Positions 34,787 through 55,365 of a stretch of DNA of 58,095 nucleotides are shown piece by piece (position 1 is the stretch's first letter; each line of letters opens with the position of its first letter). The DNA is taken from IMG/VR virus record IMGVR_UViG_3300037454_000132, positions 1-58,095 of that record; one strand, given 5' to 3'. Under the pieces are notes generated by a model that saw only the letters and a program-made list of their open reading frames with translations, had not been told where the DNA came from and ran no database searches. Source of the stretch: a virus. Position numbers and translations under genes: made by a program.

Positions 34787-37700
34787 ATGCAAAGCGTACC
34801 CGCCAACTGGGGCAGCATTTTTTCGGCCTCTCACAAAACAGAGTATCGCTTTACGGTAAACGGCGTGAACTATGAGGGCGACGACCTGAAAGACACGCCG
34901 GTTATCGTCAAGCCCCTGCTGGATAAACCCGCAATCGGGCGGTGCTGTACCGGGCAAGCGAAATTCAAAATCTACCCGAAAGGCACGATCCCGAAAGCGG
35001 CAACGGTTGACGCCTATTGCCGGTTGCGTTCTGCAACCGGCAATACCGTTACCAACTGGATTCCGCAGGGCAAATTTTACATTTCCAACCGCAAGGGAAA
35101 AGACCTGCTGGAAATCACCTGCCTTGACCGCATGATTAAGGCCGGGGTTACGTACCGCGACAAGTGCAATTTCAATTCGTGGCCGCAGCCTATGACCTCT
35201 GTGGTCAGCGATATTTGCCGGATCATGGGCGTCTCTCTGGACGCCCGGACGGTAATCAAAACCGGCGCGGGTTACACCGTTGACTACCCGAATGACGACG
35301 TTCTTATCTCTGAAATTCTGGGGATGATCGGCGCAGCTCACGGCGGCAACTGGATCATTACGGAGGCCGGAAAGCTCCGGCTGGTAGTGCTGGCTTCCCC
35401 CTCCGGCGACGCCGTACAGATTCTTGGAAAGGCTCACACGGGCTTTGTGGAGCGCGGCAAGACACAGACGATCAGCCGCGTCATTCTGGTAGACGACGCC
35501 GATAACGAGTTTACGGCTGGCGACGATTCCGGCCTGACGATCAGCGCGAAGTGCAACTATGCTACACAGGCGATAGCGTCAGCCCTTTGCAGCGCGGGAG
35601 GCATCCCGATTGACAACGGCTGTCTGACGATCCCGGACGCGGCTTTTTCAAACGGCATGATTTCCGTGGGCGCTGGCACCGTGGCGAACGGCAAAATTGA
35701 CCTGCAAACCGCCTCTGTGCTGTACGGTGTGATCTTTGAGCCGTACACGCTCTCCGGGGCGTATCTCAATCCGGCTGTTGAACTGGGCGACACCATGTCC
35801 GTCACAGACCGGGCGGGGAACGTCCATCGGGTAGTTGTGTTCTCCGTCAACATGAGCTGTACGGTTTCCTGTACGTGTTCTCTGTCCGCCCTGATTGACG
35901 GGGAAACGGAGGACGAATACCCGTACATCACCATGCAGGACTTGACCCTGAAACGGGCAGTACGGACGGATCAGACCTATTTCGGCAACCGGATCAACCG
36001 CTCTGAGGGTTTTGTAAGTGAACTGCTTGTCAATGACGTAGTGACCGCGCGCATGACCGCGAATGCGTCAAAGTTTTCGATGCAGTCCAAAGAGGGTAAT
36101 AGCTGGATTGACCGCATTTACTTTGACAACCTGACGGGAAAGTACGTTATCACCGGCGACGTGACTGTACAGGGCCTTGCGACGTTCAAAAGTGAGCTGG
36201 CCGTAAGCGGCTCCACGGTCATTAACGGCGGCAATATCACAACCGGGCAGATCAAGAGCAACAACGGCAGCGGCTTCACGATTGACCTGACCAACGGCAC
36301 AATCAGCGTCGGCAACAAAGACCTGAATACCGCGCTGAACGCCATTGATAACGAAATTGCTATCAGCGCAACGGCGCAGATGTTCACGAAAGCGGCTGAG
36401 GCGTCGTCCTATTCTCCGGCAAGTATCACGCTCACGGCGGTTTCCACGAACACCCTTGCGTCCTATCAGTGGTACAAAAACAATACGGCCATGAGCGGTA
36501 AGACCGCTCGGACACTGACCATTACGCCCAGTGACATAAGCGGCACGTCCGCGACGTTCAAGGTGGTAGGCACGGATTCTGGCGGACAGACCTACACGGA
36601 CGTTATGACGATTGCAAAGCTGGCGGACGGTGCAGACGGCGACCCCGGCGCAAAAGGTGACAAGGGGGATAAAGGCGATAAGGGCGACAAGGGAGATTCC
36701 GGCGTCGGTATCAGCTCCGTTGTGGAATACTACGCCATCAATAACAGCTCGTCCACGGCTCCGGCTGACAGCGCCTTTTCGACTACGGTACAGTCCCCGA
36801 CAAACGCAAACCGCTACCTGTGGAACTATGAACTTCTCACCTATTCTGACGGCTCCACCACAAAGACGCCGAAGCACGTTGCGGCGGTTTACGGTCAGAA
36901 AGGCGATACGGGCGACCCCGGCAGTCCGGGCGACCCCGGCAAGGGCATTGTGTCCATCACGGAATACTATGCTGTTAATAACTCCACGACGGCCCCGGTT
37001 GACAGCGCCTTTTCGACCTCGGTACAGACGCCGACAGCTTCAAACAAATACCTGTGGAACTATGAGCTGATTTCCTATACGGACGGCACGACGGCGAAAA
37101 CCGACAAGCGGATCATAGGAACATACGGCGACAAGGGCGATACGGGCGATCCCGGCAGTCCGGGCGTCGGCATTTCCTCGATCACTGAATACTACGCAAT
37201 CAACAACTCCACAACCGCCCCTGCGGACAGCGCCTTTTCGACTACCGTAAAGACGCCGACGACTTCAAACCGCTATCTGTGGAACTATGAGCTTGTCACG
37301 TACTCCAACGGAACGACGACAAAGCTGAGTAAGCACATTGCGGCAGTCTACGGTCAGACCGGTACGAAAGGCGACACGGGTAGTCAAGGTGATCCGGGCG
37401 TCGGCATTGCGTCCATCGTCGAATACTACGCTGTCAACAATTCCACAACGGCCCCCGACGACAACACCTTTTCCACCGTCGTTCTTTCGCCTACGTCGTC
37501 GAATAAGTACCTGTGGAACTATGAGCTGATTACCTATACCGACAATACGACGCACAAGACCGACAAGCGGATCATTGGCACCTACGGCGAGAAAGGCAGC
37601 AAGGGCAATAAAGGTGATAAGGGCGACGCTGGCGAGGACAGCTATACGGCGATTCTCAGCAATGAGTACATTGAGATTCCCGTAAACGTAGAAAGAAAAC

Positions 37701-39553
37701 CCCTGACCGCAAAAACCTATACCTGCGTCGTGTCCGTGTATAAGGGCATTACGGCTATGACGGCCACGCTCGACACCCCCGCAGCCGGTCAATTCAAGGT
37801 TGCTACGGGTACGGCTCCTACAGGCGTTACCGTCGCACAGTCCACGGCTGGAACGATCACCCTGACCGTTGCGACGAATAAAGCTATCATCGACGCCTCT
37901 GAGCTGGCCTTGACGATCACGGTTTACGGCGGGATTACGGTCAACGCGAAAATCTCCATCCACGCGAACATGAACGATGTGACGGTCACGCAGCAGTCCA
38001 GCATCGAACAGAACGCGACCAACATCACCCTGAAAGTCAGCAAGAATAGCGTTATCAGTGAGATTAACCAGAGCGCCGAACAGATCACCATTTCCGCCGC
38101 AAAGATCAATCTCTCCGGGCTGATTACCGCCATCAACGCTGACGGTCAGACCTCGACCATCGACGGCAGCAAAATCACTACGGGAACGGTCACAGCTACA
38201 CAGATTGCAGCTTCGACTATTACCGGCTCAAAGATCGCCTCCAACACCATTACGGCGTCCAACATCAAGGCAAGTACGATCACCGGCGCAAAAATCGCCT
38301 CTGAAACCATTACGGCGACCAACATAGCTGCCGGTACGATCACGGCAACGCAAATCGCCTCCGGTACGATCACCGCAACGCAGATCGCGGCCTCTACCAT
38401 TACCGGGGCAAAAATCGCGTCACAAACCATCGAGGCCGAGAACATCAAGTCCGGCACGATCACCGCCACCCAAATTGCGGCAAGCACCATCACCGGTGCG
38501 AAAATTGCGTCACAAACCATCGAGGCCGGGAACATCAAGTCCGGCACGATAACAGCAACACAGATCGCGTCCGGGACGATTACGGCAACTCAAATCGCCT
38601 CCGGGACGATTACCGCAACGCAGATCGCGGCATCGACCATCACCGGCGCGAAAATTGCGGCGAACACCATTGAGGCCGGAAACATCAAGGCAAGCACCAT
38701 TACCGGCGCAAAAATCGCATCGAACACCATTGAGGCCGGGAACATCAAGGCCGGAGCTATTACGGCGGACAAGATCGCATCTGGCGCTATCACCGCGAAC
38801 ATGATTACCTCTGGCACAATGTCAGCGGATCGCATTTCGGGCGGCACGATTGACGCAAACAACGTCACGATCACAAACCTTGACGTTTCCAACGCTCACA
38901 TTCAGACGATTTACGCCTATTCTTCGTCCTACTATGTCGCTCTGAAAACCTCTGGTACTACAACGCTGTACGTAGGTAGTGACGGGGCGTGGGCGGGTAT
39001 GTCGTATGTGTATGTATACGCGACGACCTCTTTTGAGGTTGGGAAATACGGAGCGTCGGATTGGTCGTACCGTTTGTGTTTTGATACCGTAAACCGTGAA
39101 CTCAAGCCAAACGGAACGAGCGTTTATGCGTGGGCGCTTGGAACAAGCGTTCGTCCATTCAAAGCAGGTTATTTCACGGAACTCTACGTGAATGGGACGG
39201 CAGTTACCGGAGGTACACCTACAATCTCTGTGCTGACTGGGAGCGGTACATATAACACGCTCACGTTGAACAGCTCAAGGCAGCTCGTACCCGGCTATAG
39301 CGGGACAAGCAGCACCTATGGTATTTCACTGGGAACCAGCAGCTACCCGTTTTATGCTCTGTACACGCACATTGCCAGTCTTGGTACGACAAGCACTTTG
39401 TCAAAGATCAGTTTCTTTGGCGCGACACTTTACGCAAAACAGACGGTCAATAAGATTTCATCCCCATCGTCCGCGACAGCGGCCACGATTGCGACAAAAG
39501 TAAATGACCTGTTGACCGCCCTGAAAAACTACGGTCTTATCGCAAGCAGCTAA
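34787..39553 (+). CDS. Tail-associated/tail fibre protein (1588 aa), modular
   Basis: Tal-like N-terminus, collagen-like GDKGDKGDKG tracts, four ~75-80-aa repeats, a long xITAxxIAxG decapeptide array, and a C-terminal tip ending KVNDLLTALKNYGLIASS. Confidence 0.85.
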   Translation: MQSVPANWGSIFSASHKTEYRFTVNGVNYEGDDLKDTPVIVKPLLDKPAIGRCCTGQAKFKIYPKGTIPKAATVDAYCRLRSATGNTVTNWIPQGKFYISNRKGKDLLEITCLDRMIKAGVTYRDKCNFNSWPQPMTSVVSDICRIMGVSLDARTVIKTGAGYTVDYPNDDVLISEILGMIGAAHGGNWIITEAGKLRLVVLASPSGDAVQILGKAHTGFVERGKTQTISRVILVDDADNEFTAGDDSGLTISAKCNYATQAIASALCSAGGIPIDNGCLTIPDAAFSNGMISVGAGTVANGKIDLQTASVLYGVIFEPYTLSGAYLNPAVELGDTMSVTDRAGNVHRVVVFSVNMSCTVSCTCSLSALIDGETEDEYPYITMQDLTLKRAVRTDQTYFGNRINRSEGFVSELLVNDVVTARMTANASKFSMQSKEGNSWIDRIYFDNLTGKYVITGDVTVQGLATFKSELAVSGSTVINGGNITTGQIKSNNGSGFTIDLTNGTISVGNKDLNTALNAIDNEIAISATAQMFTKAAEASSYSPASITLTAVSTNTLASYQWYKNNTAMSGKTARTLTITPSDISGTSATFKVVGTDSGGQTYTDVMTIAKLADGADGDPGAKGDKGDKGDKGDKGDSGVGISSVVEYYAINNSSSTAPADSAFSTTVQSPTNANRYLWNYELLTYSDGSTTKTPKHVAAVYGQKGDTGDPGSPGDPGKGIVSITEYYAVNNSTTAPVDSAFSTSVQTPTASNKYLWNYELISYTDGTTAKTDKRIIGTYGDKGDTGDPGSPGVGISSITEYYAINNSTTAPADSAFSTTVKTPTTSNRYLWNYELVTYSNGTTTKLSKHIAAVYGQTGTKGDTGSQGDPGVGIASIVEYYAVNNSTTAPDDNTFSTVVLSPTSSNKYLWNYELITYTDNTTHKTDKRIIGTYGEKGSKGNKGDKGDAGEDSYTAILSNEYIEIPVNVERKPLTAKTYTCVVSVYKGITAMTATLDTPAAGQFKVATGTAPTGVTVAQSTAGTITLTVATNKAIIDASELALTITVYGGITVNAKISIHANMNDVTVTQQSSIEQNATNITLKVSKNSVISEINQSAEQITISAAKINLSGLITAINADGQTSTIDGSKITTGTVTATQIAASTITGSKIASNTITASNIKASTITGAKIASETITATNIAAGTITATQIASGTITATQIAASTITGAKIASQTIEAENIKSGTITATQIAASTITGAKIASQTIEAGNIKSGTITATQIASGTITATQIASGTITATQIAASTITGAKIAANTIEAGNIKASTITGAKIASNTIEAGNIKAGAITADKIASGAITANMITSGTMSADRISGGTIDANNVTITNLDVSNAHIQTIYAYSSSYYVALKTSGTTTLYVGSDGAWAGMSYVYVYATTSFEVGKYGASDWSYRLCFDTVNRELKPNGTSVYAWALGTSVRPFKAGYFTELYVNGTAVTGGTPTISVLTGSGTYNTLTLNSSRQLVPGYSGTSSTYGISLGTSSYPFYALYTHIASLGTTSTLSKISFFGATLYAKQTVNKISSPSSATAATIATKVNDLLTALKNYGLIASS
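36636..37640 (+). repeat. Four tandem 224-237-bp coding repeats separated by collagen-like G-X-Y tracts (inside the fibre gene)
   Basis: Units start near 36701, 36938, 37162 and 37397. Each encodes G(V/K)GI.S..EYYA.NNS.TAP.D..FST.V..PT..N.YLWNYEL..Y..G...K. Confidence 0.85.
38170..38880 (+). repeat. Decapeptide (30-bp) repeat array inside the fibre gene
   Basis: Motifs such as ITATQIASGT, ITGAKIASQT and IEAGNIKSGT are iterated more than 20 times. Near-identical ~90-bp DNA blocks occur around 38380-38640. Confidence 0.85.
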
Positions 39554-39583
39554 ACCCAAAATCAAAATAGGAGGCTACACAAA

Positions 39584-40745: not shown

Positions 40746-41843
40746 ATGTCTATGAATCCCTTTGTTGACCGGTTTTCGGTCAACGGCGGCGCAAGCAACG
40801 CCGTTATCGGCGCAAGCGGCGATAGGTACTACGAGGGCGTAGACCTGACGCTGAAATTCGCAACAGAAATTGCCGCCTCTCCCTACAGCGGCAACCCGTG
40901 GGCGTGGATCAAGGCCCGTATTCAGGCTGCGGATTTCACCGGCATCCACGTGAACGACTACATCCCGTTCGTGACCACGGACAACAAGACCCTGAAAGCC
41001 TGTGTGGGCGGCATCAACACCTACAAGGGCTACGGCGACACGGCGGTAGGCAATCACATTGATTTCATCTGCCGTGAGCTGTGGCCTACCAGAAAGCCCG
41101 TCAACCCCGTCAACTACAACAACGGCCTGATCCCCGTCGAAACCCTGACCGGCGACGGTACGACCACTACCTTTGTTCTGGCAAAGGAAATGGACGGTAT
41201 CGCCTCCGTCACGCAGGGCGGCGAGGGCTTGACTGGCTACACCTACGACGCCTCCACGTTCACGCTGACCTTTGCGGAGGCTCCCGCCGCTGGCACGATC
41301 ACCGTCACCGGCACCGGCACGGAACATCCGTGGCTGGCCTCTGACCTCTATCACTGGCTGAACAGCCTTGCCGGTCAGGTGCCGAACGGTACGGGCCTCA
41401 ATCCCGCCGTGAAGCACGTGGATTACACGCAGGGCGGCGTGTACTACTACCTCCCGGCCAACCTGAAAAACGTGATCGTGGAAAAGAGGGCGTACCTGCC
41501 GAAGCGGTACAGCGCGTCCGGTCTGCTTTCCGACGACAACGCCGGAGCGTGGGCCGATATTGGCAAGCTGTGGCTCCCGTCCGAATACGAGGTCTACGGT
41601 GGCCCCGTCTGGGGCGGCAAGAACGGCTATGCGCTGGCCGGTAACTGCGTGCAGTACCCGATTTTCGCCCACAACATGAACCGCGTCAAGAACAGGAGCG
41701 GTAGCCGGGAGCGGTGGTGGGTACTCTCTGTCTATTCAGGCAATACCACGGATTGGTGCCATGTCAACAACAGCGGCGGTGCCGGCAACACCGGCGCGTC
41801 CTACACCAGCCGTGCCGCGCCCGTCTGCTTCCGTATCTCATAA
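40746..41843 (+). CDS. DGR target protein 1 (C-type-lectin-like/DUF1566-like variable C-terminus)
   Basis: Its 3' end carries VR1. The C-terminus is WWVLSVYSGNTTDWCHVNNSGGAGNTGASYTSRAAPVCFRIS. Confidence 0.85.
   Translation: MSMNPFVDRFSVNGGASNAVIGASGDRYYEGVDLTLKFATEIAASPYSGNPWAWIKARIQAADFTGIHVNDYIPFVTTDNKTLKACVGGINTYKGYGDTAVGNHIDFICRELWPTRKPVNPVNYNNGLIPVETLTGDGTTTTFVLAKEMDGIASVTQGGEGLTGYTYDASTFTLTFAEAPAAGTITVTGTGTEHPWLASDLYHWLNSLAGQVPNGTGLNPAVKHVDYTQGGVYYYLPANLKNVIVEKRAYLPKRYSASGLLSDDNAGAWADIGKLWLPSEYEVYGGPVWGGKNGYALAGNCVQYPIFAHNMNRVKNRSGSRERWWVLSVYSGNTTDWCHVNNSGGAGNTGASYTSRAAPVCFRIS
41715..41835 (+). repeat. DGR variable region VR1
   Basis: 121 nt aligned to TR 42414-42534 with 15 mismatches. 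Fourteen are at TR adenines and one is at TR T42511. Confidence 0.9.
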
Positions 41844-41894: not shown

Positions 41895-42362
41895 ATGAGT
41901 AACGTGCTGAAACGATTTCAGGGGATCAGCGAAATGGAGTTTTACCATACCGCTGACGACCTGCGCACGGAGCTTTCCAGTTTGTTGTACAGGGATAAGG
42001 TTGTCCCGAAAAAGTATCGGTACAACGTCACGTATGCGGCGGTAGACGCCGTAAACCGCATGATGCGGCTGATGCACCGGGCCAACCGAAAATCCCTGTA
42101 CGACCCGGAGGAAGTAAAAGAACGCCGTGACCTACAGCAAGAGTGTATCGAATGCCTTGACGAGATTTGCGAGATCATCCAGTACGCGATTCGCAATGTG
42201 TGGTGGCAAAAGCTACACGCGGTAAACAAGGAAACGGGAGAGCCGACACAGGAACGGTTGCTTTTGGAAAAGCACCTGACCGATATAGGCGATCTGATTG
42301 ACCGCGAAGATCGTTTACTCAAAGGCTGGAAACGCTCTACAAGACTTCTCAAAAACAAATAA
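41895..42362 (+). CDS. avd: DGR accessory variability determinant (Avd-like)
   Basis: 155-aa helical, basic protein located between target and TR. AGGAG lies before ATG41895. Confidence 0.75.
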   Translation: MSNVLKRFQGISEMEFYHTADDLRTELSSLLYRDKVVPKKYRYNVTYAAVDAVNRMMRLMHRANRKSLYDPEEVKERRDLQQECIECLDEICEIIQYAIRNVWWQKLHAVNKETGEPTQERLLLEKHLTDIGDLIDREDRLLKGWKRSTRLLKNK

Positions 42363-42534: not shown

Positions 42535-42758
42535 AAACACCGCTGATTCCGAAACAGCATATCCCCTATGGCCCGTATAGAGTAAGCGCCCCGCGCGCTG
42601 AAATTAGTGCCTACCCCAAAGCAAATGTTTACGGAAGGAGAAAATAACCGTCCCGAATCGAAAAGGGTAAATACGCACCGTGACGCGGCTGGCCGGACGC
42701 TTCTTGCATGGCCGGGGATGGCGACTGAGCTGACGGAATCCAGCAAGTACCCGGTTAC

Positions 42759-44087
42759 ATGACCATTGCCGCTATGGAGATCACAACGCGCCCCTACAAT
42801 AACACTCTGCGCGGTGCTTTCCCCCAGTTGAAAGAGGCAAACGAATTGAATAGTCAGGAACGACACGAAGCGCGCTACCAGCGCCGGAAAGCAGCACGGG
42901 CCGCGAAACGTCGGGAGAAGATCGGAAAGTATGACGACTTTGACCGGCTATCCTCCGTCCCCGCGATCCTCCATGCGAACTGGGAAACGCGGCAGGGCGT
43001 GATGTTCAAGGCAAACGTAGCGCGATACAACATGAATTATTACAAGAACGCTACACGGCAGTCAAAGGATTTGCGCGAGGGAAAAGACGTGCGGCGGTCA
43101 TTCTACGTTTTCGATATTCGGGAGCGTGGGAAGCTGCGGCACATTCACAGTCTGCATTACTCCGAACGTGTGATCCGGCGCTCCGCCTGTACCAACGCCT
43201 TTGTTCCTGTTCTCTCAAACGGTCTGATTTACGACAACGGGGCAAGCCTGAAAGGAAAAGGCGTGTCTTTCGCTGCGAATCGGTGTGAGGCACACTTGCA
43301 TAAGTATTTCCGGGAAACCGGGAGCAATGAGGGTTATATCCTGATAATCGACTTCAAAGGCTACTTTGACCATATTCTGCATGAGCCTTTGAAAGAACTC
43401 ATTGACCGGGCGTTTGAGGACAAGCGGATTGTCAACTTGAGCTACAGCTTTATCGACGCGACCAACCGGGACAAGCCGCCCGAACAACACGGGCAGGGCT
43501 TGTACATCGGGCCGGAGGACAGTCAGATTTACGCCGTCGCCTACCCAAATCGGATTGACCACAAGATCAAAGACGAGCTGCGGCAAAAGTATTACAACCG
43601 CTACATGGACGATTCCTACATCATTCACCGCGATAAGGACGTTCTACAGGCTATTCTTGACGTTCTGCTGAAAGAGTACGCGAAATACGGTATTATCCCT
43701 AACCCGAAGAAAACGCAGATCGTGAAGCTCTCAAAGGGCTTTACGTACCTTAAAACCCGCTATTACCTGACCGAAACCGGACGGGTAATCAAAAAGGCGG
43801 ATCATAGCTGCATCGTGCGCGAAAGGCGGAAGCTGAAAAGGCTACACGGGCTGTACGTGGCAGGTGAGGTTACACTTGACCAAATCGTACAGTCCTATAT
43901 GTCGTGGCGCGGCTCAATCCTGAAACGGGATGCCTACCGCTCTGTGCAAAGCATGGACGCCCTGTTCTTTGGACTTTACGGCGTCAAGCCGTGGAGAAAT
44001 CTTAAAAAGAAACGAGGTAAGTACAATGGACGAAACCCGCGATCAGATCATCGGGGAGATTACCGCCCTGAAATCCCTGCTGCGTGA
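42759..44087 (+). CDS. DGR reverse transcriptase
   Basis: LYIGPEDSQIYA (DGR-type IGxxxSQ) and NRYMDDSYI (YxDD). Confidence 0.9.
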   Translation: MTIAAMEITTRPYNNTLRGAFPQLKEANELNSQERHEARYQRRKAARAAKRREKIGKYDDFDRLSSVPAILHANWETRQGVMFKANVARYNMNYYKNATRQSKDLREGKDVRRSFYVFDIRERGKLRHIHSLHYSERVIRRSACTNAFVPVLSNGLIYDNGASLKGKGVSFAANRCEAHLHKYFRETGSNEGYILIIDFKGYFDHILHEPLKELIDRAFEDKRIVNLSYSFIDATNRDKPPEQHGQGLYIGPEDSQIYAVAYPNRIDHKIKDELRQKYYNRYMDDSYIIHRDKDVLQAILDVLLKEYAKYGIIPNPKKTQIVKLSKGFTYLKTRYYLTETGRVIKKADHSCIVRERRKLKRLHGLYVAGEVTLDQIVQSYMSWRGSILKRDAYRSVQSMDALFFGLYGVKPWRNLKKKRGKYNGRNPRSDHRGDYRPEIPAA

Positions 44088-44427
44088 TACCGATTATGAG
44101 GTCACGAAGTATGCCGAGGGCCTGACGGCCTGTACCACTCAGGCCGAGATCGAAGCCTACCGGGAGGCTTTCATGGCCCAGTACGGGGAGGTTATCGCCA
44201 ACCGGCAGACGTGGAGAAACAAGATCAGAGAGCTTGAGGAAGCCCTTGACGCTCTGGACGACGAAGCTGCTGAGGACGAGCCGGAGCCGGAGGGCGAGGA
44301 CGACGAATGGCCTGTGACCCCCGAAGTGAACGACGGTGAGCCTGAACCGGAGAGCGAGGACGAGCCGGAGGGTGAGGATGCCCCCGGCGAGGATGCCCCC
44401 GCCGCCGAGGACGATTCCGAGGACTGA
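44026..44427 (+). CDS. Hypothetical protein with highly acidic C-terminus (133 aa)
   Basis: Internal ATG of ORF 43930..44427, overlapping the RT 3' end. The tail is rich in DDEAAEDEPEPEGEDDE. Confidence 0.55.
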   Translation: MDETRDQIIGEITALKSLLRDTDYEVTKYAEGLTACTTQAEIEAYREAFMAQYGEVIANRQTWRNKIRELEEALDALDDEAAEDEPEPEGEDDEWPVTPEVNDGEPEPESEDEPEGEDAPGEDAPAAEDDSED

Positions 44428-44457
44428 GAGACTACACACGGGGGAGGATAACAGCCA

Positions 44458-45078: not shown

Positions 45079-46383
45079 ATGTCCTTGAGAGGAAACAGCA
45101 ATGAGGAAAGGATATGGAACTTTCTCAGCGATAAGGGCCTGTCCCCCTGCGGCGTCGGGGGCCTGATGGGAAACCTCTACTGGGAAAGCGCCCTGATCCC
45201 TACCAACTTGCAGAACACGTTTGAAAAGAAGCTGGGCTACACGGACAAGGAATACACCGCCGCCGTGGATAACGGCGTGTACACCAACTTTGCCCGTGAC
45301 GGAGCGGGTTACGGTCTGGCCCAGTGGACGTACCATACCCGCAAGGCGGCTCTGCTGGCCTTTTCTCAGGCCACAGGACGCAGCGTGGGCGACCTTGAGT
45401 GTCAGCTTGACTTTCTGTACAAAGAGCTGTCTGAGAGCTTTAAGAGCCTCCTGACGGCCCTCAAAACCGCTACCACTGTTCGGGCCGCGTCTGACCTTGT
45501 TCTGACGCAGTTTGAGCGCCCCGCCAACATGGGCGAGAGCGTGAAAAAGCAGCGCGCAGAGGCCGGACAGAAGTACGTTGACAAGTACGGCCCGAAACAG
45601 GCCGCAGAAGCCCCCACAGCGCCCGTAGAGCCGCTTAAACCGGAGTTTGGTATCTCTACCCCTATCACGACTGCGGCGCAGCTTGCGGCCAAAGCAAGCC
45701 TTGTAGCGAAGAACTACAAGACGCTGTATGTGATGGGTTGTTTCGGCGCGCCCATGACCGCCGCGAACAAGCCCCGGTACTGCACGAATCACGCCTACAA
45801 CAGACAGGCGGCACGTACCGCCATGATTAAGGCCGCGTCCGCTGACACGTTCGGCTTTGACTGCGTGTGCCTTATCAAAGGTCTGCTGTGGGGCTGGTGC
45901 GGGGACAAGAGCAAGGTTTACGGCGGCGCGCAGTATGCGTCCCGGAACGTCCCTGACATTGGAGCCGATCAGATGATCCGCGTCTGTAAGGACGTGTCTA
46001 CCGATTTCCGCAGCGTGGAGGTCGGGGAAGCGGTCTGGACAGACGGTCATATCGGCGTCTACATCGGGAACGGCCTTGCCGTGGAGTGTACGCCCCGCTG
46101 GGGAAACTGCGTCCAGATCACCGCCTGTAACCGGAGCGTGGCCGGGTATAACCGGCGCGACTGGAAGAAGCACGGCAAACTGCCCTACGTCACCTACGAC
46201 GGCATGACGGGCGGAAACGGCAGCGCCGGGAACGCTACACCGACAAAAACCGTGGACGAGCTGGCGCGGGAAGTGCTGGCCGGGAAGTGGGGCAACGGTG
46301 CTGTCCGCAAGCAGCGGTTGACGGCGGCTGGTTACGACTACGCAGCCGTCCAGAAGCGCGTCAATGAGCTGTTGAAGAAGTGA
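45079..46383 (+). CDS. Multidomain endolysin (lysozyme-like N-terminus, NlpC/P60- or CHAP-like middle, CW_7 C-terminus)
   Basis: GGLMGNLYWES...GYGLAQWT; FDCVCLIKG...GHIGVYIG; VDELAREVLAGKWGNGAVRKQRL..GYDYAAVQKRVNELL. Confidence 0.8.
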   Translation: MSLRGNSNEERIWNFLSDKGLSPCGVGGLMGNLYWESALIPTNLQNTFEKKLGYTDKEYTAAVDNGVYTNFARDGAGYGLAQWTYHTRKAALLAFSQATGRSVGDLECQLDFLYKELSESFKSLLTALKTATTVRAASDLVLTQFERPANMGESVKKQRAEAGQKYVDKYGPKQAAEAPTAPVEPLKPEFGISTPITTAAQLAAKASLVAKNYKTLYVMGCFGAPMTAANKPRYCTNHAYNRQAARTAMIKAASADTFGFDCVCLIKGLLWGWCGDKSKVYGGAQYASRNVPDIGADQMIRVCKDVSTDFRSVEVGEAVWTDGHIGVYIGNGLAVECTPRWGNCVQITACNRSVAGYNRRDWKKHGKLPYVTYDGMTGGNGSAGNATPTKTVDELAREVLAGKWGNGAVRKQRLTAAGYDYAAVQKRVNELLKK

Positions 46384-46866: not shown

Positions 46867-46876
46867 ACTACACACA

Positions 46877-46924
46877 AGAGAGCCGCACGAGGTCGGATTG
46901 TCCGTCCCGTGCGGCTCTTTTTTG
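46877..46924 (+). terminator. Rho-independent terminator closing the late operon
   Basis: AGAGCCGCACG-loop-CGTGCGGCTCT followed by TTTTTTG. Confidence 0.8.
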
Positions 46925-46937
46925 TTGCCTATAAGCC

Positions 46938-47210
46938 GGTAAACAGATTGGTCTACAAAGTGGGCTACAGTTTCGGAAAGTTTGTAGACTTTGTAGACCG
47001 GCGCGGTCTACAAATAAACAGATTTTTTGCAACTGTAGACCGATTTGTAGACCGTTCAAAGCCTTGTGTATCAAGGGTTTTCAGCTATTCGTAAACAGAT
47101 AAACAGATATTTCTAATAGACTTATGAAAACAGAGGAATTAGGCGGTAAAACCCCGCCTGACACGCCTATACGCATATGTCATATACGCGCGCGTGTATT
47201 TGTAGACCGA
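46938..47210. repeat. Composite iteron-rich intergenic element, copy C
   Basis: GTCTACA/TGTAGAC at 46951, 46983, 46992, 47006, 47034, 47046 and 47201. AAACAGATAAACAGAT. Hairpins. TATACGCGCGCGTG at 47183-47196. Confidence 0.9.
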
Positions 47211-47269: not shown

Positions 47270-47334
47270 AGTCAAAAGTTATTGACAAGTCTATGAACGT
47301 GTGCTATAATTCAGACAGTCAAAAAACTTTGACT
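47270..47334 (+). promoter_or_regulatory. Early promoter with two flanking operators
   Basis: AGTCAA-N6-TTGACA (47270-47287; TTGACA is the -35), 17 nt, TATAAT at 47305-47310, then AGTCAA-N6-TTGACT at 47317-47334. Confidence 0.75.
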
Positions 47335-47376
47335 AAAACGACAACCGAAACGCGACACGCGAAAGGAGATAACACG

Positions 47377-47571: not shown

Positions 47572-47829
47572 ATGATTAAGTTCTACAAGGTCAAAGATAC
47601 GGAGATCAGAAAGGCCGCGAAAGTGGACGAGGATGGAAAGGTTGTGGCGGTGGTCGCAATCATCGGACGGATCGGTGAGCTGGTTGAACGCGAGATCATC
47701 AGCGACGTAGAGAATTTCAACCGTGTCCGGGATCGCTGGTTGGTTATGCCGAAAGAGGCAATCGACACGGAACGCTGCGACGTAACCTATGAGACGCTTG
47801 CAGAGGCGAAAGCGAGTATCGCAGAGTGA
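47572..47829 (+). CDS. Hypothetical protein (85 aa)
   Basis: AAGGAGG lies upstream. A GC hairpin follows at 47830-47845. Confidence 0.6.
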   Translation: MIKFYKVKDTEIRKAAKVDEDGKVVAVVAIIGRIGELVEREIISDVENFNRVRDRWLVMPKEAIDTERCDVTYETLAEAKASIAE

Positions 47830-47897
47830 CGCCCCTCCGGGGGCGGTAATGCGGGAGGCCGGTCACAACCCCGGCCACAGAAAGAGAGGCAAGAGCA

Positions 47898-48145: not shown

Positions 48146-48355
48146 ATGACGGCATGGGAAAAGGAAAAAGCCTACTGCGCCCGACGCGCTGAAAAGCTGG
48201 GCGCGGAAATGGACGCCGCGATAGAGGCGGGAGATCGGGAGCGGTTTATTGCTGCCTACCAGACGGCCATGAGGTATATGACCGTAAAGCGGAGATCACA
48301 GTATTTCAGAAAGTGGCTGGAAAGTCCGAACAGAGAAAGGAGCTACACGAAATGA
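48146..48355 (+). CDS. Hypothetical protein (69 aa)
   Basis: Internal ATG (MTAWEKEKAY) of ORF 48101..48355. Confidence 0.5.
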   Translation: MTAWEKEKAYCARRAEKLGAEMDAAIEAGDRERFIAAYQTAMRYMTVKRRSQYFRKWLESPNRERSYTK

Positions 48356-48771: not shown

Positions 48772-48984
48772 ATGAGGGTTTACATCGTCGAGTACCGGCA
48801 CTACGACAAGCTGTTTGACCGCTGGATCAGCGCCGTATCTCAGGAGGGGTACACTACCCTACAGGCGGCACAGGCGTTCATCGAATCCCGTGCAAACGAG
48901 CCGTCGAAGCAGACCGAATACTATTATCAGACCCCGCTACTGGAAGAATACTACATCACCGAGGTTGCAATCCGGGAGGCGTAG
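48772..48984 (+). CDS. Hypothetical protein (70 aa)
   Basis: GGGAGGG lies upstream. A terminator follows the gene. Confidence 0.6.
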   Translation: MRVYIVEYRHYDKLFDRWISAVSQEGYTTLQAAQAFIESRANEPSKQTEYYYQTPLLEEYYITEVAIREA

Positions 48985-49004
48985 AACTACACACAGTAAA
49001 GATA

Positions 49005-49038
49005 TTTTGACCGGTCAATCGTGGCCGGTCAAAAATTT
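49005..49038. terminator. Bidirectional-looking terminator hairpin
   Basis: TTTTGACCGG-10 nt-CCGGTCAAAA followed by ATTT. Confidence 0.55.
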
Positions 49039-49050: not shown

Positions 49051-49115
49051 AGTCAAAAGGTGTTGACAAGTCTATGTTCGTTTGCTATACTGTGCATAGT
49101 CAAAAATCATTGACT
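49051..49115 (+). promoter_or_regulatory. Early promoter with two flanking operators (paralog of 47270-47334)
   Basis: AGTCAA-N6-TTGACA (49051-49068), 17 nt, TATACT at 49086-49091, then AGTCAA-N6-TTGACT at 49098-49115. Confidence 0.75.
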
Positions 49116-50351: not shown

Positions 50352-51263
50352 ATGACGTATTACGAGATCAATGAGAACGCCGCGCGCAGGGCAAAGGAAA
50401 TGAACAGCTTTTCCGATTACCGGGAGGGCGAAGCTACACAGGAATACAGGCGGATGGTGGACAAGGCTGTGCAGATCGCAGAACGGCAGAAGTCCCGCGT
50501 CGATTCCATGTACCATGAGAAGATTGACCGGCTGCTGGACACCTACGCCCGGAAGCTGGCCGACAACCTGAATCACCGCTACGAGATTGACGCTCGTGTT
50601 CCGTCCGTGATGATCGCTGGCCCCGCAAACTTTCCCGTCCGCAAGAAAGAAAAGCAGAATGCAGCGCGGGACACCAATGATGCGGAGTACCGGGAGATTC
50701 AGGAGATTCTTTCCCGGATTCAGAGTTGCGGCATGGGCGGCATTATGAGCGACGACGAGAACGCCCTTGCGAAGCTCCGGGCGAAGCTCAAGGCCCTTGA
50801 GGGCTTGCAGGAACACATGAAAGCGGCGAACGCCTACTACCGGAAGCACGGGACGCTTGACGGATGCCCGGAGGCGTCTGACGAGGTAAGGCGTCAGATG
50901 GAAGCGGATCACCTGACCGCTCCGAAAAATCAGCCGTACCCCGGCTGGGCGCTGTCGAACAACAACGCGAACATTCACCGCGTCCGGGATCGGATCGCCG
51001 CGCTTGAGAAAGAGGCGGCGAGAGCTGCGGAACAGGCCGACGCTGCCCCGGAACAGGGCGACGGCTACATTCTCAAGGAAAACTTTGAGCTGTGCCGGAT
51101 TCAGTTCATCTTTGACGGCAAGCCGGACGACGATACCCGCGCCCTGCTCAAGTCCTACGGTTTTCGCTGGTCGCCGTCTCAGGGCGCATGGCAGAGGATG
51201 TTGAATGACAACGGGCGGTATGCGGCTGAGAGGATCAAGGAAAGGCTGGCCGCGAATGGCTGA
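50352..51263 (+). CDS. DUF3560-like protein
   Basis: The C-terminal CRIQFIFDGKPDDDTRALLKSYGFRWSPSQGAWQR resembles DUF3560 proteins of conjugative elements and phages (recalled from memory). Confidence 0.55.
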   Translation: MTYYEINENAARRAKEMNSFSDYREGEATQEYRRMVDKAVQIAERQKSRVDSMYHEKIDRLLDTYARKLADNLNHRYEIDARVPSVMIAGPANFPVRKKEKQNAARDTNDAEYREIQEILSRIQSCGMGGIMSDDENALAKLRAKLKALEGLQEHMKAANAYYRKHGTLDGCPEASDEVRRQMEADHLTAPKNQPYPGWALSNNNANIHRVRDRIAALEKEAARAAEQADAAPEQGDGYILKENFELCRIQFIFDGKPDDDTRALLKSYGFRWSPSQGAWQRMLNDNGRYAAERIKERLAANG

Positions 51264-51432: not shown

Positions 51433-51459
51433 CGCTACACAAGAAGAAAGGAAAAAACC

Positions 51460-51882: not shown

Positions 51883-51918
51883 CTGGAACGCTACACCAAA
51901 GGACGGAGGTAAAAGGGG

Positions 51919-52098
51919 ATGGAAAACGTATTCGGGGGCGCGGCTGTGCTGTGCATCTATCTTGGGCCGCTGCTGTTGGCACTGGCCGTAGGCGGGTTTA
52001 TTTCGGACGTACTTTTGCCGCGCTGCCCGTTCCTGCTCCGTCTGCTGGAACGGCTGACCGGCGTAGATTTAGGAGGTAATGACTATGAGGACGATTGA
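51919..52098 (+). CDS. Small membrane protein (59 aa)
   Basis: GGAGG lies 9 nt before ATG51919 (MENVFGGAAVLCIYLGPLLLALAVGGFI). Preferred over the Arg-rich ORF 51879..52079. Confidence 0.45.
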   Translation: MENVFGGAAVLCIYLGPLLLALAVGGFISDVLLPRCPFLLRLLERLTGVDLGGNDYEDD

Positions 52099-53134
52099 TA
52101 GGTTTCTGGGCTGTCTGGTGGGTGGCGCGCTGGGGGACGCTCTGGGCTACCCCGTCGAGTTTATGAGCATGAATGACATATGCCGCATCTACGGCCACCG
52201 GGGGATCAGGGAGCCGCTTGTAAACCGGCTGGACAAGACCGCGCATATCTCCGACGACACGCAAATGACCTTGTTCACGGCGAATGGGCTTTTGCTGGCG
52301 CACAACGATGGGCTTGATCTTACTGACGCCCTATGGATCGCGTATCAGCGGTGGTATTACACTCAGACGATGCGGTGTGAGAACATCGAGTATACGATCC
52401 GCCGCGCCGGTGATCCACTTCCGTACATTCTGGATCAACACGCACTTCACGCTTGCCGCGCTCCCGGTACTACCTGTCTGACGGAGCTTGGCAACGGACA
52501 CCGGGGCGCTCCCGGCAAGAATCTGAATGACCGTAAGGGCTGTGGCGGCGTCATGCGTGTTGCGCCCTGTGGTCTGTTCTTTGCGGAGGAACCGGACGTT
52601 GCGTGTCTGGCAGCGGTCAAGGCCGCAGCTCTGACGCACGGCCACCCGACAGGCTACACGGCGGCGGGGGCGTTTGCGTACATGATCGCCCGGATTGTGA
52701 AAGACGGGATTTCCATTCGGGCGGCGGCGGAGGCGGCTATGCAGCTTGTCCCGGCTATCTCCGACAACACGGAAACGGCTGAGGCAATCGAAATGGCCCT
52801 GTTCTATGCGGAACAGGACACCTACCCGCAGAAAGCTATAAACGTGCTGGGCGAGGGCTGGACGGCTGAGGAAGCCCTTGCAATCGGCCTGTACTGCGCT
52901 CTGAGAGGTAAGACCACAAAGGAAGCCCTGATACTTGCCGTCAATCACAAGGGCGACAGCGACAGCACAGGCGCGATTTGCGGCAATATCGTAGGCGCGT
53001 ACTACGGCTATGACGCGCTTCCGGCTGACTGGATCAAGGCGCTTGAGCTTGAGGGTTTTATCCGCGTGACGGCCTTTGAGCTTTACAACAACAGCGACAG
53101 CAAAAGAAAGGAGTACAAGGATGCTGAAAAGTGA
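52085..53134 (+). CDS. ADP-ribosylglycohydrolase (ARH/DraG family)
   Basis: GGALGDALGYPVEF, HISDDTQMT, GCGGVMRVAP, HGHPTGY, GDSDSTGAICGNIVGAYYG. An alternative ATG is at 52079. Confidence 0.85.
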   Translation: MRTIDRFLGCLVGGALGDALGYPVEFMSMNDICRIYGHRGIREPLVNRLDKTAHISDDTQMTLFTANGLLLAHNDGLDLTDALWIAYQRWYYTQTMRCENIEYTIRRAGDPLPYILDQHALHACRAPGTTCLTELGNGHRGAPGKNLNDRKGCGGVMRVAPCGLFFAEEPDVACLAAVKAAALTHGHPTGYTAAGAFAYMIARIVKDGISIRAAAEAAMQLVPAISDNTETAEAIEMALFYAEQDTYPQKAINVLGEGWTAEEALAIGLYCALRGKTTKEALILAVNHKGDSDSTGAICGNIVGAYYGYDALPADWIKALELEGFIRVTAFELYNNSDSKRKEYKDAEK

Positions 53135-53450: not shown

Positions 53451-53704
53451 TGGACGTTGAGGACAAGCAGGAGCTTTTCGCGTGGCTGGAACAAAGCCTA
53501 AAGGCGCTGGTGGACGGGAACCCGGTCAGCGCGGCGGTTGTCGGGATCAACGACAAAGGCGAAACCCTGACCGGCTATTTCCACGCGGACGCTCAGGCAA
53601 AGGCGATATTTGCCCACAACATCAATGCTGATGCCATGCTTGACGTTGTTCTGAACAACATCGACATGGTGCGGGACGCTCTGGACGAGCTGGACGAGGA
53701 CTGA
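53450..53704 (+). CDS. Hypothetical protein (84 aa)
   Basis: ATGA-type overlap with the previous stop. Confidence 0.55.
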   Translation: MDVEDKQELFAWLEQSLKALVDGNPVSAAVVGINDKGETLTGYFHADAQAKAIFAHNINADAMLDVVLNNIDMVRDALDELDED

Positions 53705-53738
53705 AAAACTACACACAAAGAAAACGGAGGTAAGAAAA

Positions 53739-54527
53739 ATGTTCGACGCGATTAGAAAACCCACAGGCGAAGTGATACACGTTTATGCTGTGGAGGGCCA
53801 CAAATTTCTGATAACCGATGGCGGAATGTTCCTTTGGGACGATAAGGTGAACTACGCTCCGGTCAGCGGACAGGCCCCGGAAGTCAAAGCTGCACCGAAG
53901 AAAGACAACGCCAAGAATACCGCAACACTGTTCAAGGCTCTTGAGCTGGACTTTTCACTTGCGGATTTGCTTTCGCAGATGTGTTCTGGGGAGCTGGAAA
54001 TGTTTGTCGGAGATTACTTCACGACCCGTCTGAAAAACGGCAAGGAGGTTGATTTTGTTTGCACCGACAAAGACGGGCAGTCCTACCGGTTTGAGAGCCG
54101 GGATTGTCTGGGCCGGTATGATCCCATGACGAAGATTGACCGCTTTTTCAATGCGGTCTGGGCGGAGCTTCCTGATCCTTTGACGGACAGGATTATGGAG
54201 ATCATCAGGCAGTACAAGTCCGCTGACGGTGAGCTGATGGAACGTAAGTGCAAGCTGTTCCTCCCGTCCGCCTCTGAAATCTTCCCGGCTGACGAGTGCT
54301 ACGGGGATCAGGGTGTGTATGAACAGCTTGAGTGGTATAAGGACGTACACAACCGCATCCGGGCTTACGAGAAAGGCGGGGCCGCTGACTGGTACTGGAC
54401 GCAATCTCCCCGCTCAGGCAATACCACGCATTGGTGCACTGTCTACAACTACGGCGGTGCCGACTACGACCTCGCGTCCTCCACCACCATTGCCGCGCCC
54501 GTCTGCTTCCGTATTCCCCGAATCTAA
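53739..54527 (+). CDS. DGR target protein 2 (remote), C-type-lectin-like variable C-terminus
   Basis: The 3' end carries VR2. The C-terminus WYWTQSPRSGNTTHWCTVYNYGGADYDLASSTTIAAPVCFRI parallels target 1. Confidence 0.85.
   Translation: MFDAIRKPTGEVIHVYAVEGHKFLITDGGMFLWDDKVNYAPVSGQAPEVKAAPKKDNAKNTATLFKALELDFSLADLLSQMCSGELEMFVGDYFTTRLKNGKEVDFVCTDKDGQSYRFESRDCLGRYDPMTKIDRFFNAVWAELPDPLTDRIMEIIRQYKSADGELMERKCKLFLPSASEIFPADECYGDQGVYEQLEWYKDVHNRIRAYEKGGAADWYWTQSPRSGNTTHWCTVYNYGGADYDLASSTTIAAPVCFRIPRI
54404..54503 (+). repeat. DGR variable region VR2
   Basis: 100 nt aligned to TR 42435-42534 with 15 mismatches, all at TR adenines. Confidence 0.9.
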
Positions 54528-54541
54528 AATCCGCGCCCCTT
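54521..54541 (+). promoter_or_regulatory. GC hairpin downstream of VR2
   Basis: CCGCGCCC-cttgt-GGGCGCGG. The core sequence is the same as at 41859-41877. Confidence 0.7.
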
Positions 54542-54580
54542 GTGGGCGCGGCTACACAGCGAGAAAGGAGAATGCGAAAG

Positions 54581-54721
54581 ATGGCTTGTGATCCATGCCT
54601 CTTTTGTGAGTGGTACGCCATTGGTCAAGGTTGTACAAACCCAGATGTTCACCGGATCACGGATTGCCCAGAAATGAGAAAGGAGAAGCCGCATGAAACG
54701 CCTGACGATGAAAAACGGTGA
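54581..54721 (+). CDS. Small Cys-rich protein (46 aa)
   Basis: GAAAGGAG lies before ATG54581 (MACDPCLFCEW...). An alternative ATG is at 54572. The longer ORF from 54431 would run through VR2. Confidence 0.4.
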   Translation: MACDPCLFCEWYAIGQGCTNPDVHRITDCPEMRKEKPHETPDDEKR

Positions 54722-55359: not shown

Positions 55360-55365
55360 GTTTCT

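Follow-up and report, generated by a model that had tools for sequence, protein, structure and literature searches.

A one-strand heptamer, evenly spaced and strongly selected, in a clade of gut phages

The viral genome recorded in IMG/VR as IMGVR_UViG_3300037454_000132 raises the question of what a short DNA word is doing behind its stop codons. In this stretch of 58,095 nt, all of which was analyzed and which we call the window, a sequence-only reading had described a 9-mer, ACTACACAC, and the related heptamer GCTACAC as a gene-boundary signal. We found that ACTACACAC is a minor variant of GCTACAC and is rare outside the window and the related locus L006. The heptamer, in turn, is established here as an exact, polar, evenly spaced, strongly selected, and phage-clade-specific word that is absent from host flanks. 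The feature is real and robust; it is apparently undescribed and resembles known polar words. In the literature, we found no report of a GCTACAC heptamer in a relevant context.

Counts, strand and placement of the word in the window

GCTACAC was the commonest 7-mer of the window, with 42 copies compared to 4.9 expected. The 9-mer ACTACACAC occurred eight times compared to 0.30 expected, a number that none of 100 shuffles reached; it starts at 2306, 9650, 11991, 44431, 46867, 48986, and 53708 on the + strand and at 56373 on the - strand. CTACAC preceded by C or T was found at background frequency, indicating that the family is RCTACAC, with 50 copies. All 50 were sense to the local gene, 46 of them on the + strand (up to 55086) and four on the - strand within the integrase gene (int) and the repressor gene (rep). 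The coding copies fell in all three frames (22, 7, and 8), the commonest being frame 0, which encodes Ala-Thr (22 of 37). Spacing was even: the mean gap was 1159 nt, the coefficient of variation (CV) was 0.57 compared to 0.98 for random placement, and the smallest gap was 282 nt compared to a random median of 16. Two other words of the window were also strongly biased by strand, namely CCTGACCG (21 on + and 1 on -) and GATTGGT (11 on + and 0 on -). The 50 copies are listed below by coordinates, strand, word, and location.

903-909, +, GCTACAC, inside the DUF2800 nuclease gene (754-1971)
2024-2030, +, GCTACAC, coding (1949-2374)
2306-2314, +, ACTACACAC, coding (1949-2374), frame 0
3221-3227, +, GCTACAC, non-coding, between Shine-Dalgarno and the PolA ATG at 3229, after a predicted terminator
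4393-4399, +, GCTACAC, inside the PolA gene
5478-5484, +, GCTACAC, coding (5256-5918)
6936-6942, +, GCTACAC, 43 nt after the stop at 6892 by the gene map; may fall in a longer methyltransferase-like open reading frame (ORF), 6649-7563
7387-7393, +, GCTACAC, coding (7021-7563)
8210-8216, +, GCTACAC, coding, DUF6378 gene (7958-8323)
8659-8665, +, GCTACAC, coding (8618-9007)
9650-9658, +, ACTACACAC, 3 nt after TGA 9644-9646 and 14 nt before the promoter-like TTGACT/TTGACA upstream of the primase gene
10354-10360, +, GCTACAC, inside the VapE primase-helicase gene
10857-10863, +, GCTACAC, inside the primase gene
11991-11999, +, ACTACACAC, inside the primase gene, frame 0
13364-13370, +, GCTACAC, inside the SNF2 helicase gene
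16187-16193, +, GCTACAC, inside the DUF4417 gene
18524-18530, +, GCTACAC, coding (18126-18908)
21031-21037, +, GCTACAC, 7 nt after the stop at 21023, just before an iteron array
22324-22330, +, GCTACAC, inside the portal gene
25239-25245, +, GCTACAC, coding (24702-25382)
27797-27803, +, GCTACAC, coding (27465-27914)
29047-29053, +, GCTACAC, 14 nt after the stop at 29032
30420-30426, +, GCTACAC, inside the 1395-aa ORF 30198-34385 (putative tape-measure gene)
31293-31299, +, GCTACAC, inside ORF 30198-34385 (putative tape-measure gene)
32868-32874, +, GCTACAC, inside ORF 30198-34385 (putative tape-measure gene)
34008-34014, +, GCTACAC, inside ORF 30198-34385 (putative tape-measure gene)
35561-35567, +, GCTACAC, inside the 1588-aa ORF 34787-39553 (putative tail gene)
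38195-38201, +, GCTACAC, inside ORF 34787-39553 (putative tail gene)
39574-39580, +, GCTACAC, non-coding, between Shine-Dalgarno and ATG 39584
41236-41242, +, GCTACAC, coding, DUF6273 gene (40746-41843)
42212-42218, +, GCTACAC, coding (41895-42362)
43050-43056, +, GCTACAC, inside the reverse transcriptase gene of a diversity-generating retroelement (DGR)
43841-43847, +, GCTACAC, inside the reverse transcriptase gene
44431-44439, +, ACTACACAC, 3 nt past TGA 44425-44427; the Shine-Dalgarno and ATG 44458 of a holin/XhlA-like gene come next
45236-45242, +, GCTACAC, inside the endolysin gene
46234-46240, +, GCTACAC, inside the endolysin gene
46867-46875, +, ACTACACAC, abutting TAA 46864-46866 of the holin gene, 6 nt before the terminator hairpin 46880-46925
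48342-48348, +, GCTACAC, in the last codons of 48146-48355, between Shine-Dalgarno and ATG 48352
48986-48994, +, ACTACACAC, 1 nt after TAG 48982-48984, 10 nt before the terminator hairpin 49005-49034 and its following promoter 49063-49091
50433-50439, +, GCTACAC, coding (50352-51263)
51434-51440, +, GCTACAC, 1 nt after the stop at 51432, before Shine-Dalgarno and ATG 51460
51890-51896, +, GCTACAC, 7 nt after the stop at 51882
52653-52659, +, GCTACAC, inside the ADP-ribosylglycohydrolase gene
53708-53716, +, ACTACACAC, 3 nt after TGA 53702-53704, before Shine-Dalgarno and ATG 53739 (second DUF6273 gene)
54551-54557, +, GCTACAC, 23 nt after the stop at 54527, abutting the hairpin 54531-54551
55086-55092, +, GCTACAC, coding (54693-55112), the last + strand copy
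55868-55874, -, GCTACAC, sense to the serine integrase gene (55412-57019)
56373-56381, -, ACTACACAC, sense to the integrase gene
56871-56877, -, GCTACAC, sense to the integrase gene, at a homologous position used in five lineages
57196-57202, -, GCTACAC, sense to the CI-like repressor gene (57071-57541)

Next, we analyzed the placement of the copies relative to genes, using a map made with a codon model (85 genes, 84 junctions, 7.9% non-coding DNA). The sequence-only reading had located ACTACACAC 0-3 nt after stop codons at five junctions, and every position it gave was correct, the distances being 3, 3, 0, 1, and 3 nt; the stop at 44425 closes a small ORF with an acidic tail that is absent from the automatic gene map. 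The remaining three ACTACACAC copies are inside genes. The GCTACAC copies it had reported at other junctions were likewise found 7, 14, and 23 nt past stops (21031, 29047, and 54551) or between a Shine-Dalgarno sequence and an ATG (3221, 39574, and 48342), and its estimate that about a quarter of the copies are non-coding agreed with our count of 13 of 50, an excess over the non-coding share of the DNA (binomial P = 1e-4). Copies of the A class (the 9-mers) were more often intergenic than those of the G class (5 of 8 compared to 8 of 42, Fisher P = 0.02). In all three cases of a long gap (109, 171, and 510 nt), the 9-mer lay at most 3 nt from the stop (P ~7e-6, calculated post hoc), filling the short stretch that separates the stop codon from a terminator or promoter. 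On the whole, 13 of the 84 junctions held a copy, and 74% of the copies (37 of 50) were inside genes.

Distribution and orientation in related phages

No close nucleotide match to the window was found among deposited phages. Relatives were collected by protein searches with the primase, integrase, PolA, SNF2, and DUF4417, which gave ~270 loci, each taken as ~20 kb and named L plus a number. The same exact 7-mer filled ~20 related phage lineages of gut Clostridia with GC contents of 41-60%, in prophages and viral contigs from Oscillospiraceae, Lachnospiraceae, and other Clostridia; the prophages that bear it included those of metagenome-assembled genomes (MAGs) of Oscillospiraceae, Lachnospiraceae, Anaerovoracaceae, Eubacterium, and Coprococcus (GC 41-59%). 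Eighty PolA-centred loci (924 kb) held 437 copies on the PolA strand and 15 on the other. In the non-redundant sense sequence (432 kb), there were 267 copies compared to ~19 expected, and 267 compared to 2 by strand; none of the single-base variants of the word was enriched there. Flanking positions carried at most 0.32 bits over 500 unique contexts, so only the seven core positions were informative. The word was 8- to 14-fold above dinucleotide or Markov expectation. Its density in relatives was 0.4-1.0 copies per kb, and within the clade it fell from 1.0 through 0.2 to background. Lineages with the word have a PolA at least ~64% and an SNF2 at least ~64% identical to those of the window, and this word-bearing clade, a relative of the proposed Heliusvirales, is widespread and abundant in the human and animal gut.

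The copies stopped with the phage. In L005, L012, L013, L014, and L023, they ended just past the integrase gene, where host DNA presumably begins, and host flanks held ~3 RCTACAC in ~47 kb compared to ~0.9 per kb inside the prophage. Strong and ongoing selection was visible within genes. Main-body genes contained 190 copies, compared to 36 +/- 5.5 under a synonymous-codon shuffle (5-fold), and the reverse 6-mer GTGTAG was depleted in them (8 compared to 34 +/- 5.6 under a codon-aware null). Ala-Thr-[HQPRL] tripeptides were also in excess (214 compared to 142 +/- 11). The positions of the copies within PolA differed among lineages, indicating that density is kept by turnover and not by descent.

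The window suggested that orientation follows transcription, which was not borne out across the clade. In the rep-int block, de-duplicated across lineages, 30 copies were sense and 29 were antisense, both far above chance. The word flips with the int and rep genes in the window, L005, L006, L013, L033, and L037, whereas the main-body strand is kept straight through int and rep in L024, L103/L109, L009, L014, L015, and others, making up about half of the lineages. Terminators at the convergent int junction did not differ between the flipped and the uniform lineages. The window's two polarity domains border on each other at the int end and in the region of the divergent rep/cro promoters. A GCTACAC in main-body orientation was observed 14-30 nt before the int start in L007, L009, L010, L011, L014, L015, L016, L027, and L038. 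The rep-int spacer copies lie in unrelated sequence contexts, suggesting repeated independent gain there.

A different word behaved alike in an unrelated temperate phage. L019 (CAMVKW010000013.1, Lachnospiraceae MAG, 1-21548) carries CATATTT 41 times on one strand and 0 times on the other, compared to 5.9 expected; seven of these copies are antisense inside the integrase gene, and the spacing is uneven (CV 1.13). Together, the uniform lineages and the antisense copies of L019 favor a signal tied to a DNA strand over one tied to the transcript. A second phage with a different one-strand heptamer also suggests that a systematic search would find more. Weaker one-strand words were observed elsewhere: TTAATTC (20:2) in a Blautia phage, CCTTGAAT (12:1) in phiPaco, and CCTTAAT (17:2) in Jekyll.

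The placement at gene ends was then compared with that in the relatives, where 24% of the copies were intergenic. In gaps of at least 60 nt, 17 of 45 copies lay at most 10 nt from the upstream stop, compared to 5.2 expected (KS, Kolmogorov-Smirnov, P = 3e-8), and only one copy lay at most 12 nt from the next start. The arrangement of a stop, 0 or 3 nt, and ACTACACAC recurred in L006, L012, and L018. Relative to terminators, four copies stood before, two after, and two overlapped across the loci, which was not significant (P = 0.06, few cases). Thus, the non-coding enrichment and the stop-proximal placement noted by the sequence-only reading are reproducible. Its term gene-boundary signal did not hold to the same degree, since three quarters of the copies are intragenic, all frames are used, and 13 of 84 junctions are occupied. 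It confuses a favored location with the nature of the element, whose defining properties are genome-wide. The junction copies reflect a preference for unconstrained bases, plus an unexplained bias toward the stop side.

Gene content and possible readers

The two ends of the window are identical (1-127 = 57969-58095), indicating a complete circular genome of 57,968 bp. The phage is a temperate siphovirus with a Gram-positive host; its genes are named here w plus a number. The replication side encodes the DUF2800 nuclease, an Enc34/gp2.5-type single-stranded DNA-binding protein (SSB), PolA, ThyX, the VapE primase-helicase, VRR-NUC, and SNF2. The SNF2 translocase is related to defence helicases, and a PD-(D/E)XK exonuclease is encoded along with the VRR-NUC nuclease. 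Further genes encode a sigma-like late regulator, DUF4417, TerS, TerL, and the portal, and the ORFs of 1395 and 1588 aa occupy the usual places of tape-measure and tail genes, to which they are putatively assigned by size and position. A DGR (reverse transcriptase and RT-2 RNA), a CW_7 endolysin, and accessory operons are also present, and the serine integrase and CI-like repressor genes form a reversed block. Three genes referred to below are located as follows.

9756-12203, VapE primase-helicase gene
15716-16345, DUF4417 gene
57796-58020, cro-like gene, directly before w52-237

Several other features were observed in the window. Near-consensus sigma-70 promoters (TTGACA-17-TATAAT/TATACT) lie at 47282-47310, 49063-49091, and 57599-57627, and a promoter-like TTGACT/TTGACA was read by eye at about 9674-9700. 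The promoter regions 9674-9730, 47270-47335, 49051-49105, and 57587-57627 are each flanked by AGTCAAA/TTTGACT half-sites, which are probably operators of the CI-like repressor and mark several separately controlled operons. Iterons TTTGTAGACC/GGTCTACAAA in both orientations, with TAAACAGAT repeats, form three arrays at module junctions that may serve as an origin or bind a regulator: the first (12210-12330) follows the primase gene, the second (21049-21200) the gene next to TerL, and the third (46940-47210) the late terminator. At the convergent accessory/int junction (55360-55430), three GCAAGTTA direct repeats and a bidirectional terminator-like hairpin (CCCCGGAGG...CCTCCGAGG) mark a possible attP region. 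An RT-2 RNA (42568-42837, +, 116.5 bits) lies directly upstream of the DGR reverse transcriptase gene and overlaps its start, and the two DUF6273 proteins (40746-41843 and 53739-54527) are likely DGR targets. A Type-P5 twister self-cleaving ribozyme (47820-47874, +, 62.9 bits, E = 9e-11) occupies the gap between two small accessory-operon genes; it is a genuine RNA-processing element at one junction and is unrelated to GCTACAC. Upstream of the packaging genes, 16488-17066 and 17259-17888 encode an ADP-ribosyltransferase (exoenzyme type) and a papain-fold glutamine-deamidase toxin domain, and an ADP-ribosylglycohydrolase gene lies at 52085-53134 in the accessory region. The 303-aa protein of 50352-51263 matches PHROG 19458 ("primase") over its full length (E = 1.6e-115) and has no Pfam domain.

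We then asked which gene content accompanies the word. In the sampled loci, the PolA/primase/SNF2 backbone was always present where the word was; density was at background in integrase-only loci and in DUF4417 phages whose replication modules are of another type. No phage gene tracked the word cleanly among these loci. DUF4417 was the best correlate (29/3/2/20). Its family corresponds to gene 1 of the Cluster A mycobacteriophages (L5, D29), with members also in Cluster L and pneumococcal phages, whose records label it a ParB-like nuclease or methylase, or in some cases a nuclease. Its predicted fold (predicted local distance difference test, pLDDT, 85) had no significant match in the PDB, and no PADLOC or NCBIfam hits were found. 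DUF4417 was not sufficient, as the word is missing from Roseburia phage Jekyll and from 13 further DUF4417 phages whose replication modules differ, and also from L248, L250, and L252, which have both the backbone and DUF4417; nor was it necessary, as L161, L162, and L165 carry the word without it.

Other candidates were rejected as well. In contrasts of gene content, neither the primase nor PolA was a clean correlate. The DUF2800/SSB/PolA/VapE/SNF2 module in general occurs in Blautia, S. aureus, Fusobacterium, and Paenibacillus phages without the word or a comparable substitute. The lysogeny module (integrase, repressor, cro, and w52) was associated with the word in 24 of 30 compared to 0 of 17 cases, which amounts to about one clade contrast and is broken by L022. 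The methyltransferase-like w7021 is missing from motif-rich relatives, and the late regulator w14909 and the terminase/portal type are absent or of other types in the motif-bearing L155, L157, and L141-L147. The "primase" PHROG protein (50352-51263) is not conserved in the motif-bearing relatives sampled. A host Chi or uptake sequence was excluded, as the word gives out where the prophage ends and does not change from one host family to another.

Taken together, we consider it somewhat more probable than not that the word is a polar cis-acting signal that is read on DNA by a tracking machine; a lineage-specific factor moving along the genome would read it on one DNA strand. More tentatively, the reader may be the replisome or its primase, the copies serving as lagging-strand start sites. 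They would then be regularly spaced starts of discontinuous synthesis by the phage's T7-like replisome, composed of PolA, an archaeo-eukaryotic primase (AEP)/superfamily 3 (SF3) helicase, and the gp2.5-type SSB. The + strand would be the lagging-strand template, with the fork moving in the direction of transcription, and a copy would be needed about every 1-2.5 kb wherever affordable. In a compact genome, the cheapest places would be just past a stop codon or between a Shine-Dalgarno sequence and its ATG, and such scarce unconstrained bases would account for the quarter of the copies, and most of the 9-mers, at junctions. Along one strand, the distances between copies match the length scale of Okazaki fragments, and the VapE primase is present in every motif-bearing locus that spans the region. 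The two polarity domains of the window might likewise arise if, in the integrated prophage, replication forks start from an origin close to cro.

Nevertheless, a number of observations weigh against the replication model. Presence of the word does not follow primase similarity: the primase of L154 is 60% identical and the locus has no motif, whereas L155, at 51% identity, has a density of 0.42 per kb. In L250, L252, and L248, the backbone is complete and the motif absent. The model thus needs a labile primase specificity, and known primase sites are 3-5 nt, not 7. No origin or GC-skew polarity switch was found in the window, where the skew was uninformative, the iteron arrays (12.2, 21.1, and 47.0 kb) are not switch points, and the RCTACAC density is about halved between 13 and 30 kb (0.47 per kb). 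The model explains neither the avoidance of the reverse complement (GTGTAG) nor the position of long-gap copies near the stop instead of the next start (17 compared to 1). For the int and rep copies that flip with their genes in window-like lineages, a transcription-linked model is simpler, and single-strand accessibility is not clearly selected.

Alternatively, the word may act co-transcriptionally or as RNA, which we regard as unlikely. GCUACAC in the nascent transcript, or the DNA word on the non-template strand within the transcription bubble, would repeatedly recruit or reload a factor on long operons for antitermination, anti-Rho protection, or RNA protection or processing, and ribosome-free RNA past a stop would be its best site. 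All 50 window copies are sense, including the four of the reversed int/rep block, the long-gap copies hug the upstream stop (17 of 45 compared to 5.2) and almost never the next start, and two 9-mers lie 6-10 nt before terminator hairpins. Avoidance of the reverse complement in the same transcript would leave the word unpaired, and copies were slightly more unpaired than random 7-mers (0.48 compared to 0.43, P = 0.03). However, accessibility was no better than with shuffled flanks (P = 0.18), the rep-int block across lineages holds 29 antisense and 30 sense unique copies, and the word occurs in early, late, accessory, and lysogeny genes alike. Copies can also follow terminators, the difference of 4 before and 2 after not being significant. 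An Rfam 15 scan of the window found only the RT-2 RNA and the twister-P5 ribozyme, neither at a copy; no Rfam family, no tRNA or small RNA (sRNA) partner, and no recognizable antiterminator or RNA-binding protein among the window genes was found. A possible complementarity of the word to "GUGUAGC" in 16S rRNA was set aside because any 7-mer has a ~9% chance of occurring in 16S and the segment is helical. To our knowledge, no phage RNA signal made of a dispersed, exact 7-mer has been described. The sequence-only reading had offered mRNA processing and translational coupling as roles for its signal. The former received no specific support from Rfam, accessibility, or terminator counts and is kept as a rival, and the latter fails for copies before terminators or inside genes. 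There is also some chance, a little smaller than that of an RNA signal, that the explanation lies outside those considered here.

Localized single-strand nick sites, of the T5, phiKMV, and tf type, seem fairly improbable. Here, a nickase would cut one strand at the copies late in infection, leaving virion DNA regularly nicked. The one-strand exclusivity and the avoidance of the reverse word resemble tf (PMC3517423), the uniform lineages run straight through int and rep, and the clade restriction with graded loss (1.0 to 0.2 to 0 per kb) fits a dispensable function. On the other side, 50 even sites at ~1 per kb with protein-level accommodation differ from the few uneven sites of tf and T5, and the opposite-strand copies in int and rep of window-like lineages are unexpected. 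No nickase was found in the search, DUF4417 being neither sufficient nor necessary and without a known fold. Such nicks have no known function, and the strength of selection would thus remain unexplained.

A phage-autonomous, Chi-like self mark appears less probable again. A helicase-nuclease degrading from an end or nick would be attenuated at a correctly oriented word and spare phage DNA; the enzyme could be phage-encoded (e.g., the DUF2800 nuclease, VRR-NUC, or SNF2) or belong to a mobile host defence, and with even spacing, whatever the permuted end, the terminal redundancy would always contain a stop. An exact, polar, strongly over-represented 7-mer is like Chi, even coverage of the whole circle, including int/rep, suits headful-packaged permuted ends, and absence from host flanks is expected of a mark that separates phage from host. 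The phage also encodes a PD-(D/E)XK exonuclease, a VRR-NUC nuclease, and an SNF2 translocase; however, these candidate enzymes are found in motif-free relatives too. The word is not the host's Chi (~3 copies in ~47 kb of flank, and the same word across host families), only one entry direction would be protected, and the avoidance of the reverse word and the placement at stop codons would be left unexplained.

Repressor roadblocks, which the sequence-only reading had also suggested, are very unlikely. In a stoperator-like model, the prophage repressor would sit at each copy and stop RNA polymerase, silencing lytic genes. Stoperators are the best-known precedent for dispersed asymmetric sites with an orientation tied to transcription in a temperate phage (PMC9283540), and the window copies are all sense and enriched between genes. 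The Cluster A mycobacteriophages, in which stoperators occur, have DUF4417 as their gene 1, and motif-rich lineages of the PolA sample share the int/rep/cro/w52 module of the window, but this link is one phylogenetic contrast, broken by L022. The model fails on most defining features, namely length, location, operators, and repressor invariance. Only 7 bp are informative, compared to a 13-mer that is barely enough for binding (PMC9283540), and 74% of the copies are inside genes. No RCTACAC is present in the rep/cro region 57542-57795 or at the strong promoters, which have AGTCAAA/TTTGACT instead, and the word is invariant even though the repressors are 32-66% identical, unrelated, or undetectable. 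Finally, sense copies lie inside int and rep of the window, so stoperators would silence these genes themselves.

The further proposal that the copies are conserved boundaries promoting gene-module exchange between phages is hardly credible. Some gene-end copies lie where similarity to relatives starts or ends (3229, 9659, and 21020), but in a check covering ~22 kb of the window, six similarity breakpoints fell at most 15 nt from a copy compared to 4.7 +/- 2.1 expected (P = 0.33). Most copies are intragenic, 13 of 84 junctions are occupied, and 7-9 bp of identity is too short for homologous exchange. A by-product of composition, codon usage, or a repeated peptide, to which the predominance of frame 0 (Ala-Thr, 22 of 37) might point, is refuted by the use of all frames and non-coding DNA, the 5-fold excess over the synonymous shuffle, and the even spacing, and related phages of similar composition lack the word.

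Comparison with known systems

Primase sites (based on 5'-GTC-3' for T7 gp4, and GTT/GCT for T4) are sequence-specific lagging-strand starts with kilobase spacing. The phages described here are alike in replisome composition and in kilobase-scale spacing on one strand. However, known primase sites of 3-5 nt are too frequent to form a selected, even, and strand-exclusive set, and the motif does not track primase similarity. Chi (RecBCD/AddAB), the FtsK orienting polar sequences (KOPS), and the SpoIIIE recognition sequences (SRS) are exact, over-represented, and polar 5- to 8-mers read by a translocating machine; Chi attenuates its nuclease on an encounter from the 3' side, KOPS/SRS guides point to dif, and KOPS also avoids the reverse orientation. 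This KOPS/SRS feature, strong polarity with counter-selection of the reverse, is present here (GTGTAG 8 compared to 34 +/- 5.6). In contrast, Chi and KOPS words belong to the host chromosome and vary by host species, whereas the word here is phage-borne, constant across host families, and C/A-rich on a purine-rich strand. Phage T7 has many EcoP15I (CAGCAG) sites in one orientation and none in the other, and by avoiding inverted pairs it escapes the Type III enzyme; in our case, the forward word is positively selected and evenly spaced, and inverted pairs exist through the int/rep block.

The nick sites of T5, phiKMV, tf, and LUZ24 are similar to the word in being a short exact one-strand consensus that is specific to a phage group and variable in number and position (PMC3517423). 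Phage tf has 14 copies of a short exact asymmetric consensus, all on one strand despite convergent genes; near-cognate words are also missing from the other strand, the number and variant of sites differ among relatives, and viable T5 mutants without nicks exist according to the same paper (PMC3517423). Nick-site phages carry 4-14 major sites, unevenly placed, whereas here ~50 are evenly spaced under selection that alters proteins. Some lineages here also have opposite-strand copies in int/rep.

Stoperators are asymmetric 13-mers at ~25-30 mostly intergenic sites that double as a promoter operator and co-vary with repressor specificity, the 13-mer alone being already marginal for repressor binding (PMC9283540). 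Those of L5 gp71 are similar to the word in their many asymmetric copies over a temperate siphovirus genome, their enrichment between genes, and, as far as the window and similar lineages go, their transcription-related orientation (PMC9283540). Here, by contrast, an exact 7-mer is found at 50 sites that are mostly intragenic, evenly spaced, and absent from promoters; it is invariant across unrelated repressors, and half of the lineages ignore the direction of the int/rep genes. On most points compared, the word behaves neither as a stoperator nor as a host Chi.

Temperate phages of gut Firmicutes might, speculatively, carry private heptamer polarity codes, such as GCTACAC or the CATATTT of L019, on one strand at ~1-2 per kb, read by a phage-encoded tracking machine (a replisome, helicase-nuclease, or nickase). 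Such codes would be a phage-autonomous counterpart of Chi and KOPS that organizes the viral chromosome. The word is also of practical use as a marker, from which one can read prophage ends, strand, and orientation and recognize clade members in metagenomic data. Selection on it bends protein sequences and keeps the spacing even while sites turn over, and nothing annotated explains it. Identifying its reader would uncover an unknown step in the replication, expression, or protection of these phages, which are uncultured, much as each earlier polar word (Chi, KOPS, primase sites, stoperators, and nick sites) led to a DNA-tracking machine.

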